This document shows positions 48-10,102 of a stretch of DNA of 49,931 nt, piece by piece. Origin of the DNA: an uncultured Halobacteriales archaeon (GTDB lineage Archaea; Halobacteriota; Halobacteria; Halobacteriales; Halalkalicoccaceae). The notes under the pieces are model-generated. The model had not been told where the DNA came from, searched no databases, and saw only the letters and a program-made list of their open reading frames with translations. The stretch lies in the NCBI GenBank assembly GCA_964403315.1, contig CAYOFZ010000001.1, forward strand, positions 1-49,931. The letters run 5' to 3'. A program made the position numbers and the translations under genes. Every line of letters starts with the position of its first letter. Positions within the stretch are counted from its first letter, which is position 1.

Positions 48-374
48 ATGAGCGATCAACCCGAGACGATGCTCGAATACCACTTCCGCAAGCTTTCGCG
101 GAAGATCGCCGCCACGGCGTTGTTGGTGATGGCGAGCATCTATCTCGCCGCGGGCGCGGTCGTACACTCTTCCGATCCGGTAATGAGTTGGGTGTTCATA
201 TTTGGGGCAGTCCTGACGATACTCGCCGCGATCGGTGCATCGAACGAAGGGTACGCCCGGCGGACGTTGAACCGACTCTTTCGAACCGACCTGACGGACC
301 TCGAACGTCCGGACGAACCCGGAGAAGCCCCCGCCAACAGACCGTTCCGACGGGAGGGTATCGACGATGACTGA
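48..374 (+). CDS. small membrane protein, 2 predicted TM helices
   Basis: 108-aa ORF. Hydrophobic segments ATALLVMASIYLAAGAVV and WVFIFGAVLTILAAIGA, acidic tail. GGGAGG about 9 nt upstream of the ATG. 8-nt overlap with the next ORF. Confidence 0.55.
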   Translation: MSDQPETMLEYHFRKLSRKIAATALLVMASIYLAAGAVVHSSDPVMSWVFIFGAVLTILAAIGASNEGYARRTLNRLFRTDLTDLERPDEPGEAPANRPFRREGIDDD

Positions 375-1272
375 CGACAGCGTGGTCGAAACATACCGCG
401 AGCGGGGCCGCGACGCCGGGGACCGCCTCGGCACCGCCCTCGGCAGCCTCACCGCCGCCATCATCGGGTTTGCGATCGTCACAGCCGTCCGTTTCATGCT
501 CATCCTGCGCGGGAAGCTGTTCAAACGCCTCGCCATCAAATCCATCGAGAACTACCACAAGATCGCCGGGGGCGACGCCCTCGCGGTGAACGCCAAAGCC
601 GGCCAGCAACTCGCGCTCGAACCCGTGCTGTATCGCGCCCCCGAGGAGACCGACGAGGGCGAAAAGAGCGGCTGGAAAGTCAAGGGCCGCGACAAGGTGT
701 GGAACCCCGCGAAGGAGGGCAACAGCGTCAACTACCTCGGGCGAACGCCGATGATTCAACTCGAAGACGACGACCACGTTGAAGCCGGGTGGCTCGCCCC
801 CCGCGTCGGCACAGCCATCGAACTCGATCAATACTGGCCGCTGTTCACCGGCGCGACGATCAACGCCGTGATCGACTACGATGGAAGCGCCGCGGCACAG
901 GGGCAGGCGGTCGCCGACGGCGGCGTGAGCCTCGAACTCGATAGCCCCGGCGAGTGGGCACGCGATAACATCGTTGACCTCGGGTCGGGTGAGGGCTACG
1001 ACGGCATGCGAATTTCGACGCGCAAGGCTCGCGAGTGGCGCGCCGAACACACCGATTCCGAACACATGCAGCATCAAGAGGACCGGGGCTACCTGATGGG
1101 CCTCGCGAAGGGCGACGAGGGCCCGGGCATGGTCAAGATTCTGTTGATCTGCATGGGGATCATCCTCGGGACGCTCGCGATCGTCCTGCTCGGCCCGCAA
1201 CTCGTCGGCGGCGGCGACGGGGCGTCGATCAACCCGCTCATGCTCGCCGCACAGACCGCCTTCGGAGCCTGA
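367..1272 (+). CDS. membrane protein, N- and C-terminal TM helices flanking an acidic soluble domain
   Basis: 301-aa ORF. TM-like LTAAIIGFAIVTAVRFMLIL and ILLICMGIILGTLAIVLLGP. Acidic composition. The overlapping antisense 334-aa ORF is Arg/Pro-rich. Confidence 0.6.
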   Translation: MTDDSVVETYRERGRDAGDRLGTALGSLTAAIIGFAIVTAVRFMLILRGKLFKRLAIKSIENYHKIAGGDALAVNAKAGQQLALEPVLYRAPEETDEGEKSGWKVKGRDKVWNPAKEGNSVNYLGRTPMIQLEDDDHVEAGWLAPRVGTAIELDQYWPLFTGATINAVIDYDGSAAAQGQAVADGGVSLELDSPGEWARDNIVDLGSGEGYDGMRISTRKAREWRAEHTDSEHMQHQEDRGYLMGLAKGDEGPGMVKILLICMGIILGTLAIVLLGPQLVGGGDGASINPLMLAAQTAFGA

Positions 1273-1275
1273 CCC

Positions 1276-7171: not shown

Positions 7172-8123
7172 CGAACCGACCACCGCCCGCGCCCGCCGAG
7201 CACAGGCGGTCCGCGAAGGCACCGCAACCGACGCCGTAGAGCGCCGTGTCCCACGGTCGAACCCCCGGAGTCGCGGCGAAATGTCGTCACGCCGAAGGCA
7301 ACAGACCACGGCGCGCGAACTTGCCGAGGAGATCGACATCGACCGCGAGGGTGTCGGGACGGTCGACCGCATCGGCGGGCTCGATGTCTTCTTGCGCGGC
7401 CCCGGACCGAGCCAGTTCGGCCGGAACGTCCGCCGGGACTTCGCCAGCGAAGCGGATTTCGTCGAACCGGGCGACGTGAACCCGCGCATCGACGCACAGG
7501 ATATCAGCGCCGAACCCCGCGTCGCCCGCGACCGCCGCGACGACGTGGGGCGACGCGCACGGCAACACTTCGCCGAGGAAGACGAGTTCGCCGAGCCGTC
7601 GGATTTCACGACCGATGTCGGGGCGTTCGGCGTTCGCGAGGCCCGACTGTCCGATATCGGGGCACGACGCCGCGCCGGTCGCCAATTCGCGAGCGAGACG
7701 CGACTCGAATCGGTCGGTCCCGACGACGTGCGCGCAACCGACGGCGGCTTTGCGCTCGGCGAGGCCCCACAGCGCCAGCTTGCGGCGTTCGAGTTCGCCG
7801 ACGCGACACCCGTGGACACGTTCGATCCCGAATCCGATATCGTCCCGACCGAGGGCGGCTTCGGACTGACGAGCGGCGCACAGCGCGAGGTCGCCGCCCG
7901 CCAGTTCGAGACCGATTTCGAGCTGTTCGGTCGGCGCGAGCTTGATCCGACGACCGACATCCGCGCGGTCGGCGGCGGCTTCGGACTCGGCGAGGACCCG
8001 GCGCGCGAGCTTGCCGCCGCGGATATCGAAGCCCAGCTCGGCCAGCCGGTCGATCCGACGGACATCGATCTGGAGCCGGTCAACGGCGGCTTTGAAGCCA
8101 TCTTCGAAGGGGGTGGGCGCTAA
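7161..8123 (+). CDS. tandem-repeat protein (about six repeats of 37-40 aa, consensus RQFA..D..GGF.L..R..AA)
   Basis: 320-aa ORF. Repeats visible from aa 92 onward. Two overlapping antisense ORFs are Arg/Ser-rich and rejected. Confidence 0.6.
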   Translation: MPDNEPTTARARRAQAVREGTATDAVERRVPRSNPRSRGEMSSRRRQQTTARELAEEIDIDREGVGTVDRIGGLDVFLRGPGPSQFGRNVRRDFASEADFVEPGDVNPRIDAQDISAEPRVARDRRDDVGRRARQHFAEEDEFAEPSDFTTDVGAFGVREARLSDIGARRRAGRQFASETRLESVGPDDVRATDGGFALGEAPQRQLAAFEFADATPVDTFDPESDIVPTEGGFGLTSGAQREVAARQFETDFELFGRRELDPTTDIRAVGGGFGLGEDPARELAAADIEAQLGQPVDPTDIDLEPVNGGFEAIFEGGGR

Positions 8124-10102
8124 TGCCATCCGAAGCGGATCTCGACGCCCAGCAACCGAGCGAGAACCCCGGCCGCGGCATCGCACCGACGGACGGCAGC
8201 GACGACGACAGCGACAGTTCGAGCGGCGGTGGTGGCGGTGGCGGTGGCGGCGGGTCGACCCGGAGCCGAACCCCGACGCGCACCGAAGCCGACATCGACG
8301 CCGTGACGCCCTCGGTCAATCCGGGGCTTCGCGAGACGACCGTCGTCGATCAGGCCCGCGCCGGCTTCGAACCCACGCAGGCCGGCACCGAACGCCGCGC
8401 GCAGGAGGCGTTCAGTTCCCAACGCGAGCGGGCGCGACAGATGGCCGATGTCGACGACCCCACGGTGTCGCGACTCGGTGCGTTCGAACCGAGCGAACTC
8501 GATTTCGATGTCGGGCGCGAGACCGTGACTATCTCGCCGACCGATCGGGCGCGCCGGCGCAGAGGTCGCGAGGTCAGCCAGCAGCGTGTTGTCGGTGCGG
8601 GACCGACCGAAACATCGCCCGACGCACCCACGGATGATGGACTCGGGACGATCGCAGATGTCAACGTTCCGGGGACGGATTCGACGGTGCTCGAAGTACT
8701 CGACCGCGGGGGTCGGGCGTATCAATCTGGCGTGGTCGACCCGCTCGCCGAGAGCGCCCGCGAGATCGGTGAAGCAGACACGATGCTCGCCGGATCGGGC
8801 ATGTCCGTCGAAGGATCCGAAGCGCGCGGTGAGCTCTTTTCGGACTTCGCGAGAACGAGCGCGTCCGCGCTGAACGTCCCTGGATTCGGGGCGGATCTCC
8901 TCCGCCTCGGCCCGGCGTCGGCACGGGCGGCGAGTTCCCCCGAACGCGCTCGGGCGGCGGTTGGAGTGGGCGCACAACTCGGCCGCGAAGCGGGTGCGTT
9001 CGCACAGCAAAATCCGGCGAGAACAACGGCGATGCTCGGCGGGCTTGTGGCCGGCGCGGGCGTCGCGACCGGTGCGGCGCGGGGTGCGAGAGCCGGCGCA
9101 CGGCGCGCGTCGGAGGTCGACCTGCCGAGCGGGAGCCAACTTCGACGGGAGGTCGGCGAGTTTGGCAGCGCCGATCGCGGGCAACTCGACATCGGTGGCA
9201 TCGGTCGGCGACAAACCGACGACAGCATTTCGATCGATGCCGACGACATCGCCCCGGCGGACGACTTCGACCCCCAGCGGGTGACGCGCGCAGAAGTGAC
9301 ACGCGCACCGGAGACACCCATCCGCCGCGAGACCGGTTCGTTTAGCCGCCCGTGGTCCCAGAGTCGCCGGCCGATTCGGCGCGGTGAGCCCGACGACTTC
9401 CGCCGGCCGGTCGAAGAGGAGGCGATGGCACAGGATCGAATCTTCGAGGGGCTCGAACCGCGGCAGGCCGCGGACGCCGACACGCAGATCCCCGCCGATC
9501 CGCTCGATACGTCGGGCGGGCTCACACCGACCGGTGGCGGGTTGTTCGAGGGAGCCATCGGCGCGGGTGCGGGTGCCGGGGCGATGTTCGGCCAGTTGTC
9601 CGAACAGGCCACGCTCGGCGACCTCGAAACCACGCCGTCGGCGACGCTCGATACCGACGCCGCGCTCGCCAGCGAACTCGGCTTCGAGGTCGGGACGGGC
9701 CTCGGCACCGGCCTCGGCGACGAGGACGCCGCCGGACTCGGTGAAGACACAACAACCGAGTCGTTGACTGGTGCGGCGACCGACGAGGATATCGCGACGC
9801 TACTCAATGTCCGCGCACGGACCGCGCTCGACACGCTGCAGGCACAGGACGCCCTGCAGGTGACGGCGGAGCAATCGGCGGCCGATCCGCTCGATCCGAC
9901 GCGAGGGGAGCCGACTCGCACGAGATTCAGACCGCCGCGAGGACCACCCCAACGGCCGCCACGGGTCCCGGTGATATGGCCGGACGCCGATCGCGAGGAC
10001 GACCCGCTCGGCTTCGGCACCGAATCCGACGACGCGGTATTCGGCTCGGGAATCGCGAGCGCCGAGGACATCTGGGGCGACGAGTCGCCTCGGCGGTCGT
10101 AA
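8123..10102 (+). CDS. large low-complexity acidic protein with a Gly10 tract
   Basis: 659-aa ORF. TAATG junction. Gly10 encoded at 8225-8254. Ala/Gly/Asp-rich and predicted to be disordered. Confidence 0.6.
   Translation: MPSEADLDAQQPSENPGRGIAPTDGSDDDSDSSSGGGGGGGGGGSTRSRTPTRTEADIDAVTPSVNPGLRETTVVDQARAGFEPTQAGTERRAQEAFSSQRERARQMADVDDPTVSRLGAFEPSELDFDVGRETVTISPTDRARRRRGREVSQQRVVGAGPTETSPDAPTDDGLGTIADVNVPGTDSTVLEVLDRGGRAYQSGVVDPLAESAREIGEADTMLAGSGMSVEGSEARGELFSDFARTSASALNVPGFGADLLRLGPASARAASSPERARAAVGVGAQLGREAGAFAQQNPARTTAMLGGLVAGAGVATGAARGARAGARRASEVDLPSGSQLRREVGEFGSADRGQLDIGGIGRRQTDDSISIDADDIAPADDFDPQRVTRAEVTRAPETPIRRETGSFSRPWSQSRRPIRRGEPDDFRRPVEEEAMAQDRIFEGLEPRQAADADTQIPADPLDTSGGLTPTGGGLFEGAIGAGAGAGAMFGQLSEQATLGDLETTPSATLDTDAALASELGFEVGTGLGTGLGDEDAAGLGEDTTTESLTGAATDEDIATLLNVRARTALDTLQAQDALQVTAEQSAADPLDPTRGEPTRTRFRPPRGPPQRPPRVPVIWPDADREDDPLGFGTESDDAVFGSGIASAEDIWGDESPRRS

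Follow-up and report, generated by a model that had tools for sequence, protein, structure and literature searches.

The operon at 48-10102

The window, by which we mean the whole stretch of 49,931 nucleotides that was analysed, opens with 17 co-directional genes on the plus strand (g01 to g17), packed at 48-10102 with a spacing of -11 to +4 nt between neighbours. Every one of these ORFs was found where the initial annotation had placed it. The tight coupling it described also holds, but overlap is less general than claimed: 9 of the 16 junctions overlap (-1, -4, -8 or -11 nt), the other 7 being gaps of 2-4 nt. GC3 lies between 0.67 and 0.92 in 16 of the 17 ORFs and is 0.56 in g05. At least one TM segment is predicted (Kyte-Doolittle windows) in 11 of the first 12 products, as had been proposed for most of them, and only g05 is without one. 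The module had no match among curated families.

The first gene of the run, g01 (48-374; 108 aa, 2 TM segments), has a homologue only in the Natronomonas pharaonis plasmid PL23 (46% identity). The core gene g02 (367-1272) encodes a product of 301 aa in which TM helices at both termini enclose a ~200-aa domain; it shows 55-75% identity in PL23 and the relatives L006, L007, L009 and L011, and its C-terminal third matches CDS0016 of the Haloferax lemon-shaped virus LSV-48N by profile (E 3.5e-5). Two core genes encode two-helix hairpin membrane proteins. These are g03 (1276-1506; 76 aa, 49-72% identity in relatives), whose HMM finds LSV-48N CDS0014 (E 8e-24 in a small local database; hhalign 6e-5), and g04 (1506-1766; 86 aa, 57-74% identity), which has a basic C-terminal tail. 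Weak profile links join g04 to the hairpin family of the first operon gene discussed below (E 4e-4) and to the tandem hairpins CDS0058/59 of Halorubrum virus V_ICIS4 (E 7e-4); similarity to the His1 and SSV1 MCPs was not significant. g04 is possibly a second coat-type protein. The soluble, Cys/His-containing 72-aa product of g05 (1763-1981) is an accessory insertion; it had no match in the relatives examined, in which g04 directly adjoins g06.

Further membrane proteins are encoded by the core genes g07 (3693-4094; 133 aa), homologous to LSV-48N CDS0011 (tblastn 6e-10; hhalign 1e-12), and g08 (4091-4435; 114 aa, polytopic), homologous to LSV-48N CDS0010 and V_ICIS4 CDS0049 (hhalign 6e-8 and 9e-5, respectively). 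The small membrane proteins g09 (4438-4818), g10 (4822-5205, with a zinc ribbon and a hairpin) and g11 (5208-5579) are a local expansion: relatives have one gene at this place, and g09 and g11 are weak paralogues (E 0.002), both starting with MATET. The membrane HExxH protein noted earlier is real and carries a HELSH motif. Its start was moved from 5506 to the GTG at 5584, which is more likely because homologues align only from about residue 27 of the longer ORF. The resulting core gene g12 (5584-5940, ~118 aa) has H19, E20, H23 and D104 invariant in 7 homologues including LSV-48N CDS0008 (hhalign E 5e-8) and V_ICIS4 CDS0048. Sub-threshold matches to PF11667 (DUF3267, 'putative zincin peptidase') were found in 3 of 6 family members, and g12 is a putative zincin peptidase.

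One product among the first twelve, g06 (1978-3693), had been proposed as a spike-like candidate of roughly 570 aa with an N-terminal signal and a C-terminal anchor. It is 571 aa long, and the AlphaFold2 model (pLDDT 83.7) has this layout: a hydrophobic helix (signal peptide) at the N-terminus, then about five beta-sandwich domains, and a C-terminal part with three TM helices. Foldseek matched the model to generic Ig/FnIII arrays and the H. volcanii S-layer, and also to His1 VP27 and a protein of a Nitrosopumilus spindle-shaped virus. No pleolipovirus spike occurred among its top 50 PDB or top 50 BFVD structural matches. Homologues are found in PL23 (43% identity), V_ICIS4 (CDS0051, 33% over the full length) and LSV-48N (CDS0012, 30%; profile comparison E 1e-32). 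The family has at least 145 homologues, and 40 of the 394 good Halobacteria genomes carry it. g06 remains the spike or adhesin candidate, possibly a terminal fibre, though not a spike of the pleolipovirus kind.

The five genes described as acidic, low-complexity or repeat proteins (5944-10102) fit that description, being disordered or repetitive, with 17-22% D+E and no TM segment. They make up the operon's variable distal portion and are conserved in a patchy manner: g13 (5944-6255) in L007, g14 (6252-6806) in L009, and g16 (7161-8123) in L006, L009 and PL23. g15 (6803-7171) and g17 (8123-10102) complete the set; g17, for which 5.8 billion proteins yielded only 3 homologues, has weak repeats in common with g16. 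A T6 tract (10114-10119), read directly in the sequence 12 nt past the g17 stop codon, is the probable end of the operon, oligo-T being an archaeal terminator. Downstream of the operon lies a gene for a CAP/SCP-domain lipoprotein (10143-10790, plus strand; PF00188, E 6e-10), and L009 has a CAP protein at the same position.

Contig ends and the first operon gene

The operon is interrupted by both contig ends, and its apparent start at position 48 is an artefact of one of them. Bases 1-51 (plus strand) hold the last 16 codons and the stop of a ~210-aa acidic operon gene, the body of which is absent from the contig; they translate to QNEEEGTASRVGRILE followed by the stop, matching the C-termini of 210-213-aa proteins of L006, L007 and PL23. 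At the other end, the first operon gene begins at 49769 and runs off the 3' contig end after 54 codons (49769-49930, plus strand). About 1.4 kb of the operon is absent from the contig. Neither the body of the ~210-aa gene nor the other missing operon genes were found elsewhere in the MAG.

The 54-codon fragment is 59% identical to residues 1-54 of a 107-aa protein of L007 and belongs to a family of two-helix hairpin membrane proteins with 252 homologues, 100-174 aa long. The N-terminal extension varies, while the core is conserved as TM1-loop(NxS/T, GPF)-TM2-GFFGGGGF; the loop carries the sequon and has large insertions in some members. PL23 and L007 have tandem hairpin paralogues. By profile the family matches LSV-48N CDS0020 (E 7e-6 to 2e-6), which at 166 aa has the length of the L009 homologue. 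Similarity to the SSV1, His1 and HRSSV coat proteins was not significant in sequence (hhalign P 0.02-0.06) or in fold (Foldseek E>3; model pLDDT 69.7), and the coat role is therefore argued from position, topology and one published proposal. The protein is a coat-protein (MCP) candidate, and its gene is cut in half by the contig end.

This bears on the earlier statement that the 49.9 kb hold no capsid gene. A scan of about 40 ORFs (the 17 operon genes and about 22 of the larger ORFs elsewhere in the window) turned up no HK97-type capsid, portal or tail gene, and to that extent the statement stands. The DUF87/HerA ATPase at 30885-32591 matched a PHROG labelled 'terminase large subunit', a generic P-loop match. 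As a denial of any coat gene the statement is unsafe, because the truncated first operon gene is a coat-protein candidate, and it is probably wrong.

If the contig were truly circular as assembled, the coat gene would be lost and the element defective: a complete circle that has lost, by deletion, the latter half of the coat gene together with three more genes, and that no longer makes particles. The absence of the missing genes from the MAG agrees with such a remnant, yet the contig ends without a terminal overlap, which assemblers usually leave on circular contigs. All relatives, moreover, keep a full 100-174-aa hairpin gene and the 67-, 123- and 210-aa genes. Many contigs with hairpin homologues are only 1-2 kb long, as would fit assemblies that break in this region, and the other operon genes have intact frames and high GC3. 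We regard a defective remnant as unlikely.

The divergent arm and collinear relatives

On the minus strand, three genes form an arm divergent from the operon. The 304-aa P-loop ATPase at 47703-48617 is of the His1 ORF16 type and has a C-terminal HTH. In BLASTP it matched HRSSV-BLv25 ORF1 (2e-37), His1 ORF16 (2e-15) and LSV-48N CDS0023 (6e-6), and in tblastn PL23 (82% identity) and V_ICIS4 CDS0001. Its conserved 170-aa partner (48620-49132; 40-52% identity in PL23, L006, L007 and L009) matches LSV-48N CDS0022 (E 5e-5) at the same relative position. A small gene conserved in the same four relatives (49431-49703) heads the arm, and the regulatory region between the two arms is just beyond it.

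The module is collinear with those of three elements: PL23 (40-82% identity), V_ICIS4 and the structural operon of LSV-48N. In tblastn, g03, g06, g07 and g08 matched LSV-48N CDS0014, CDS0012, CDS0011 and CDS0010, and the best profile matches of eight families keep the gene order: the hairpin family with 0020 (2e-6), p122 with 0018 (1e-4), g02 with 0016 (4e-5), g03 with 0014 (6e-5), g06 with 0012 (1e-32), g07 with 0011 (1e-12), g08 with 0010 (6e-8) and g12 with 0008 (5e-8). The identity to LSV-48N, at 28-35%, is low, and of the eight profile links four have an E of just 1e-4 to 1e-6. The two matches of the divergent arm (CDS0023 and CDS0022) come in addition.

The complete relatives, PL23 among them, have been deposited as plasmids; the only description of PL23 is that of a plasmid that also has an integrated copy. 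The N. aquatica relative occupies a contig of 28.8 kb, and the contig name records an assembly coverage of 326; by itself this figure is only a weak hint of a multicopy element. No tyrosine-type integrase was seen on the element studied here. The plasmid deposits, and the fact that the PL23-like clade is known from genes alone, would suit a non-viral membrane module of PL23-type plasmids, for example an apparatus for cell-to-cell DNA transfer or surface remodelling; small two-helix proteins with a HerA/VirB4-like ATPase also loosely resemble the archaeal Ced/Ted systems. Yet the DUF87 ATPase is 21 kb away from the operon, has no BLAST match in PL23 and matched only DUF87, HerA_C and AAA_16, not VirB4 models. 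All four plasmid relatives were typed as non-mobilizable (MOB typing), and the entire module has its collinear counterpart in a purified virus. We give this reading an outside chance.

The kind of element

The initial annotation saw in the operon an envelope or vesicle-forming module of a pleomorphic virus or a self-packaging plasmid. A particle-forming, membrane-associated module with no icosahedral capsid remains a good description, but neither family fits. For a pleolipovirus-like enveloped virus with g06 as the fusion spike one may cite the spike-like layout of g06 (signal peptide, ectodomain, C-terminal anchor), the many small membrane proteins in the absence of icosahedral capsid genes, and the round particles also present in LSV-48N supernatants (PMC12714723). 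However, no ORF of the window matched HRPV-1 VP3, VP4 or VP8 at E<=1e-4. The ~50-kb genome is far from the 7-17 kb of pleolipoviruses, and the divergent-arm ATPase belongs to the His1 ORF16 type, which, however, also occurs in pL6-family plasmids, whose replicase is betapleolipovirus-like. Such a virus is very improbable.

In favour of a self-packaging plasmid of the pR1SE/apHPV kind, whose membrane proteins would remodel the host membrane into plasmid-carrying vesicles, one may cite the size of ~50 kb, in the class of pR1SE, and the many membrane proteins. The HerA/VirB4-like ATPase at 30885-32591 recalls apHPV ORF25, also described as VirB4/HerA-like; the Halopiger plasmid pHALXA03 shares the ATPase, a C5 methyltransferase and a DUF1643 protein; and recombination of apHPVs with viruses has been reported. 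An S8 peptidase belongs to the apHPV core, however, and so does a large ORF6 protein whose C-terminus is a beta-sheet array and which often begins with a WD40 domain (PMC10818511). The contig has no S8 peptidase, and the ORFs scanned included no large ORF6-like protein. Homologues of the operon genes come from LSV-48N and V_ICIS4 and not from the apHPV clusters that have been described. A vesicle plasmid of this type is quite improbable.

We therefore favour, with a probability of roughly 0.65, a virion-morphogenesis module of a spindle-shaped haloarchaeal virus or virus-derived plasmid, of a PL23-like clade distantly related to LSV-48N and Tebi-SV1 (proposed Almyrocitroviridae). Most likely the element, at ~51 kb, is a large relative of the lemon-shaped haloarchaeal viruses described recently, close to that proposed family. 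Gene content, topology and the collinear homology with LSV-48N, V_ICIS4 and PL23 are established; the following scheme of how the element would make particles, if it makes any, is inferred. A divergent control region near 49.7 kb would drive a leftward arm (small regulator, 170-aa protein and His1-ORF16-type ATPase) and a rightward arm, the structural operon. The two-helix hairpin of the first rightward gene would insert in the host membrane as the coat building block, with g03, g04, g07, g08 and other small hairpin or polytopic proteins as minor coat or assembly components. g12 may trim a coat-protein precursor, and g06, anchored by its C-terminal helices, would form a host-binding adhesin or terminal fibre. 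The variable acidic proteins may be accessory, as internal or host-directed factors. Release of the particles would be non-lytic, by budding or extrusion.

The genome of LSV-48N, a lemon-shaped virus that has been purified, shows no similarity to capsid proteins known so far (PMC12714723). For the related Tebi-SV1, the published work detected six proteins in particles, put forward as the MCP a ~17.5-kDa protein whose TM profile is MCP-like, and remarked on a large Ig-like TM protein (PMC13612827). It is by published descriptions that the module is likened to Tebi-SV1 particle proteins and set apart from the core genes of pR1SE and the apHPVs. PL23-like elements are known as genes or plasmids alone. 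The known members are half as large as this ~50-kb element. Finally, the spindle-shaped viruses His1 and HRSSV-BLv25 have an ATPase of the type found at 47703-48617, and His1 shares the layout: its ATPase arm diverges from VP21, which is followed by small TM proteins and then by VP26 and VP27 with signal peptide and anchor.

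Organization of the operon and its interrupted ends

The 17-gene plus-strand operon (g01-g17, 48-10102), together with the region 47703-49930 and about 1.4 kb of missing sequence, most plausibly represents the core conserved in a lineage of spindle-shaped haloviruses. This lineage has LSV-48N and Tebi-SV1 as relatives but is separate from both. We put the probability that the module is homologous to theirs at roughly 0.9. That the clade around the Natronomonas pharaonis plasmid PL23 actually produces spindle-shaped particles is a less secure proposition, though one that we favor.

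All 17 open reading frames listed in the initial annotation were found. Their GC3 lies between 0.67 and 0.92, with the single exception of the 72-aa gene at 1763-1981 (0.56). Of the first twelve products, most of which had been noted as having TM helices, 11 have TM segments predicted by hydropathy windows, and the last five (g13-g17, 5944-10102) are acidic as described (D+E 17-22%). The junctions had been described as nearly all overlapping; the spacing within the operon ranges from -11 to +4 nt, and true overlap occurs at only 9 of 16. The most likely start of g12, the membrane HExxH protein, is GTG 5584, because homologues align only from about residue 27 of the frame opening at 5506. The acidic proteins are fast-evolving and patchily conserved (g17 has three homologues), and other large proteins take their place in relatives. 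A T6 tract follows the g17 stop codon, and a CAP-domain lipoprotein is encoded downstream of the operon both in the window and in L009, a related locus. The segment 4438-5579 is a local expansion, in which the weak paralogues g09 and g11, both starting with MATET, flank g10, a protein with a zinc ribbon and a hairpin.

The window is an entire contig of 49,931 bp, the largest of 214 in a MAG of 2.1 Mb that is 77% complete, and its ends interrupt the operon at both sides. Bases 1-51 encode QNEEEGTASRVGRILE and a stop codon, the C-terminus of an acidic protein of 210-213 aa that precedes the g02 homologue in relatives; in PL23, as in the window, the g01 homologue sits between these two genes. At the other end, a frame from ATG 49769 continues past the contig 3' end and shares 59% identity with residues 1-54 of the 107-aa protein heading the same operon in relatives (hereafter the first-gene hairpin). 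No terminal repeat was found on the contig, and a search across the MAG for the missing operon head, comprising the rest of the hairpin gene and the 67-, 123- and 210-aa genes, was negative. The gene order is intact in the closest relative, L033 (g06 72% identical), where the products measure 131-67-123-210-310-76-86-579-134-115-130 aa. From this order and the truncated ends, about 1.4 kb seems to be missing, giving a genome of about 51 kb. A direct junction of the two ends, yielding a 56-aa protein, conflicts with these homologues.

Composition does not separate the contig from the MAG (GC 62.4% versus 63.6%, tetranucleotide distance within range). A g06 homologue was present in none of seven sampled genomes of the MAG's own family, however, and the nearest relatives of proteins from the window carry the label Natronomonas. 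The host is therefore uncertain, and the contig may have been placed in the wrong bin. An exact match of 27 nt between 32186-32212 and another contig of the MAG (C19, 10047-10073) was considered as a CRISPR spacer and dismissed as a chance match in a coiled-coil coding region (DDEIDRLQAE). The window also shares a DUF87/HerA ATPase (51%), a C5 methyltransferase (45%) and a DUF1643 protein (61%) with the Halopiger plasmid pHALXA03 (window 30885-32591 and 34198-36550; plasmid 14183-19271 and 34844-35365). This plasmid is otherwise unrelated (68.8 kb, carrying MCM and Cdc6). Because of these common genes, the window appears to be a mosaic in which a spindle-virus core is combined with a backbone of plasmid type.

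Homologues of the module and rival readings

No operon protein scored above threshold against Pfam, PHROGs or NCBIfam, the first 10.2 kb gave no megablast match to plasmids, and a pattern scan of genome contigs returned only three loci. For g06, the 571-aa protein at 1978-3693, no relatives were found in IMG/VR, and a profile of its alignment returned nothing from PDB sequences. Its homologues number more than 145, nearly all from hypersaline metagenomes, the named ones being from Natronomonas and Salinarchaeum. In annotated collections it was found in PL23 (43%, full length) and three other small haloarchaeal plasmids, and it also aligns with proteins of the Halorubrum virus V_ICIS4 (33%, full length) and of LSV-48N (30-32% over the C-terminal part). 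Of 394 good Halobacteria genomes, 40 contain a domain of the g06 family (25 of 91 genera); its frequent chromosomal location is consistent with proviruses, and N. pharaonis has both a plasmid and a chromosomal copy.

LSV-48N, a Haloferax virus (PP151251; EMBO Rep 2025), forms lemon-shaped particles of 65-90 nm that have been purified; no ORF of its genome shows resemblance to known capsid proteins, and its describers regarded it as founding a new family (PMC12714723). Tebi-SV1 was placed with it in the proposed Almyrocitroviridae, and six of its proteins were found in particles (PMC13612827). Neither the LSV-48N paper (PMC12714723) nor the Tebi-SV1 paper (PMC13612827) mentions Natronomonas or PL23.

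Small family alignments of the window and its relatives were compared with every operon protein of LSV-48N and V_ICIS4. The best LSV-48N matches of eight families follow strict gene order: the first-gene hairpin matches CDS0020 (E 1.8e-6), a TM protein of about 122 aa CDS0018 (E 1e-4), g02 CDS0016 (E 3.5e-5), g03 CDS0014 (E 6e-5), g06 CDS0012 (E 1e-32), g07 CDS0011 (E 1e-12), g08 CDS0010 (E 6e-8) and g12 CDS0008 (E 5e-8). Gene-by-gene tblastn likewise found LSV-48N collinear for g03, g06, g07 and g08. On the divergent arm, the 304-aa P-loop ATPase at 47703-48617 (minus strand) is 82% identical to its PL23 counterpart and matches ORF1 of the Halorubrum spindle-shaped virus BLv25 (E 2e-37), His1 ORF16 (E 2e-15) and LSV-48N CDS0023 (E 6e-6). 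Its 170-aa neighbor (48620-49132, minus strand) matches LSV-48N CDS0022, which lies in the equivalent position.

The initial annotation had instead suggested a membrane-enveloped pleomorphic virus, with g06 as the spike-like candidate, or a plasmid packaging itself into membrane vesicles. The first proposal, examined as membership of the Pleolipoviridae (core genes for a VP3-like membrane protein, a VP4-like spike and a VP8-like NTPase), found no support: no window ORF matched HRPV-1, the one pleolipovirus genome compared by sequence, at E<=1e-4, and none of the 50 best structural matches of g06 in either PDB or BFVD is a pleolipovirus spike. Vesicle plasmids of the pR1SE type (apHPV) do resemble the window in size class, haloarchaeal hosts, number of membrane proteins and a HerA/VirB4-like ATPase, and apHPV ORF25 might have its counterpart in the DUF87/HerA ATPase at 30885-32591. 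Their core consists of cluster 1, with ORF6 (a large beta-sheet-array/WD40 protein), the S8 peptidase ORF7, ORF8 and ORF9, and cluster 2, with ORF17, 21 and 23-25 (PMC10818511). S8 peptidases (PF00082) were found in the MAG only on two other contigs, C37 and C162, and Pfam scans revealed no WD40, large beta-propeller-like or ORF6-like protein. Judged by the published description of the core, the window has no S8 peptidase and, among the ORFs scanned, no ORF6-like protein, and its membership among these plasmids is not supported. The DUF87 ATPase lies 21 kb from the operon and has no BLAST match in PL23; its PHROG match to a terminase large subunit is a generic P-loop match. A conjugative or type IV secretion-like system, which would call for a VirB4-type ATPase inside the membrane operon, a coupling protein and a relaxase, is not supported either, this distant protein being the sole large ATPase and matching DUF87 and HerA_C only. 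Scans gave no match to a relaxase or TraG, and the plasmid relatives are typed as non-mobilizable.

Candidate coat, adhesin and maturation proteins

The first-gene hairpin is the coat-protein (MCP) candidate of the spindle-virus reading. Its family has 252 homologues in 127 clusters at 50% identity, with a variable N-terminal extension (0 to about 120 aa) and a conserved core of TM1, a loop with NxS/T and GPF, TM2 and then GFFGGGGF. The family occurs in tandem copies in PL23 and in L007, a related locus, and it includes LSV-48N CDS0020 (166 aa) by profile and transitive BLAST. Tebi-SV1 VP35, of about 17.5 kDa and with an MCP-like TM profile, is the proposed coat protein of that virus (PMC13612827). 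Some members carry a loop insertion of about 200 aa; in P0338, P0342, P0345 and other members of 338-360 aa, this insert is sequon-rich and probably beta-rich. Should this family prove to be the coat protein, its loop would be outward-facing and able to accommodate a decoration domain.

Coat proteins of the SSV1 VP1/His1 VP21 type are small and have two hydrophobic helices with a short, often glycosylated loop between them. The first-gene hairpin shows this topology and the loop sequon, and its link to the SSV1, His1 and HRSSV coat proteins is topological only. Comparison by hhalign of g03, g04 and the first-gene family with His1 VP21, HRSSV ORF2 and SSV1 VP1/VP3 was non-significant (P 0.02-0.06), known MCPs gave no BLAST match to the 126 retrievable representative members, and a Foldseek search of the AF2 model against BFVD was also non-significant (E>3). 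The only operon protein matching VP21 in tblastn against His1 and HRSSV was the g10 hairpin, weakly (E 0.014), and g10 had no match in the relatives examined. In profile comparisons, the 86-aa g04 is weakly linked both to the first-gene family (E 4e-4) and to the hairpins in tandem at the head of the V_ICIS4 operon (E 7e-4). There may thus be several coat-type paralogues, a situation known from VP1 and VP3 of SSV1.

In the AF2 model of g06 (pLDDT 83.7), a signal-like helix is followed by about five beta-sandwich domains and, at the C-terminus, three TM helices. Foldseek matched this model to generic Ig/FnIII arrays, including the Haloferax volcanii S-layer and phage fiber and adhesin proteins, along with a protein of a Nitrosopumilus spindle-shaped virus (E 1e-5) and His1 VP27 (E 1e-4), all with low TM-scores. 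The protein agrees with what is published on VP29 of Tebi-SV1, noted by the authors as a large, Ig-like TM protein (PMC13612827), and is a natural candidate for an adhesin or terminal fiber. In g12 (5584-5940), the H, E and H of HExxH and a distal Asp are invariant, and three of six members score 14-17.5 bits against PF11667 (DUF3267, putative zincin peptidase), below the cut-off of 27.1. As a putative zincin, g12 may trim the variable N-terminus of the hairpin precursor.

A broader proposal, which we hold only tentatively and consider rather doubtful in its entirety, is that the PL23-type elements, including PL23 and the element of about 51 kb in the window, constitute a separate lineage of large spindle-shaped haloviruses that is common worldwide. 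The coat of these viruses would consist of a hairpin family unrelated in sequence to the SSV1/His1 coat protein; its precursor would carry an N-terminal extension of highly variable length and sequence, and a membrane zincin encoded by the virus would carry out maturation. If true, the window element would have the largest genome known for this group of viruses, with its own CRISPR array and TnpB.

Comparison with known spindle-shaped viruses

Although hypersaline waters commonly contain lemon-shaped viruses, only a handful of isolates exist, and nearly all of their coat and assembly genes are labelled hypothetical. The existence of the LSV-48N group was itself already known, having been published in 2025-2026. 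Its structural module is now linked to a metagenomic element of about 51 kb, to hundreds of metagenomic contigs and to PL23, a long-known and unexplained plasmid of the cultivable N. pharaonis DSM 2160. The linkage defines which genes the group conserves (those for the hairpin, the double-anchored protein, the Ig-array adhesin, the small TM proteins and the membrane HExxH protein, and the His1-type ATPase arm), suggests a tractable host in which particle formation can be tested, and shows that genomes of the group can be twice as large as those known so far, with CRISPR/TnpB cargo.

The closest complete cultured relative is PL23 (NC_007428; 23.5 kb) with its chromosomal copy. It is collinear with the window at 40-82% identity for g01-g04, g06-g08, g12, g16, the ATPase arm and the hairpin genes, which are in tandem; it encodes a tyrosine integrase and has proteins of 467 and 1036 aa in place of g13-g17. 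No description of PL23 as a virus was found in the literature searched, where earlier papers treat it only as a plasmid with an integrated copy. A PL23-like element was also observed in Natronomonas aquatica F2-12, on a 28.8-kb contig (NZ_JAHLKM010000030.1) with an assembly coverage tag of 326; this tag hints weakly at a multicopy extrachromosomal form in this cultured strain, which would make it a second candidate in which to look for particles.

V_ICIS4 (OR762182; 25.3 kb) shares with the window the full-length g06 homologue, the g08 and HExxH (g12) genes, tandem hairpin first genes and a His1-type ATPase, but its hairpins have no detectable relation to the first-gene family of the window. 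Three further, non-operon genes are common to both at 33-49% identity, including the annotated transcriptional regulator of V_ICIS4 (window 16636-17235 and 17786-18160, minus strand, and 21706-22215, plus strand; V_ICIS4 15573-16142, 14648-15028 and 12349-12951, respectively). We found no paper describing V_ICIS4 particles.

His1 (Halspiviridae) follows the same plan, its ATPase arm diverging from an operon in which the gene for the hairpin coat protein VP21 comes first, then those for small TM proteins and lastly those for two signal-peptide/C-anchor proteins; VP27 is the weak structural match to g06. The genomes of His1 and BLv25 are smaller (13-14.5 kb), that of His1 is linear with a protein-primed polymerase, and their coat proteins have no significant similarity to the window hairpins.

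With LSV-48N, the window shares ten gene families in the same order. Eight belong to the structural operon, namely the hairpin first gene, a TM protein of about 100-120 aa, a double-anchored protein of about 300 aa, a 76-aa hairpin, the large Ig-array TM protein, a pair of small TM proteins and the membrane HExxH protein; the ATPase and its partner are the two that belong to the divergent arm. As in the proposed Almyrocitroviridae, no classical capsid gene is recognizable. Likeness to Tebi-SV1, compared by description only, lies in sizes and descriptions (166-aa hairpin homologues, Ig-array TM protein), and both Tebi-SV1 and the window (20182-20907) carry a TFB-like gene. Identity to LSV-48N is only 28-35%, the Ig-array protein has 571 aa against 904 aa, and LSV-48N encodes an additional protein of 824 aa. 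Additional in the window are acidic proteins, a CRISPR array, TnpB, the DUF87 ATPase and a methyltransferase, and a serine recombinase takes the place of the tyrosine integrases. The proposed Almyrocitroviridae were defined by genome-wide gene sharing and VICTOR phylogeny; judged by collinear best matches of its genes, the window shares the structural gene module of LSV-48N. Since identity is low, the window may represent a sister group rather than the same family. At about 51 kb, compared with 25-27 kb in LSV-48N and the Almyrocitroviridae, the window element is an unusually large new member of this recently described kind of virus.
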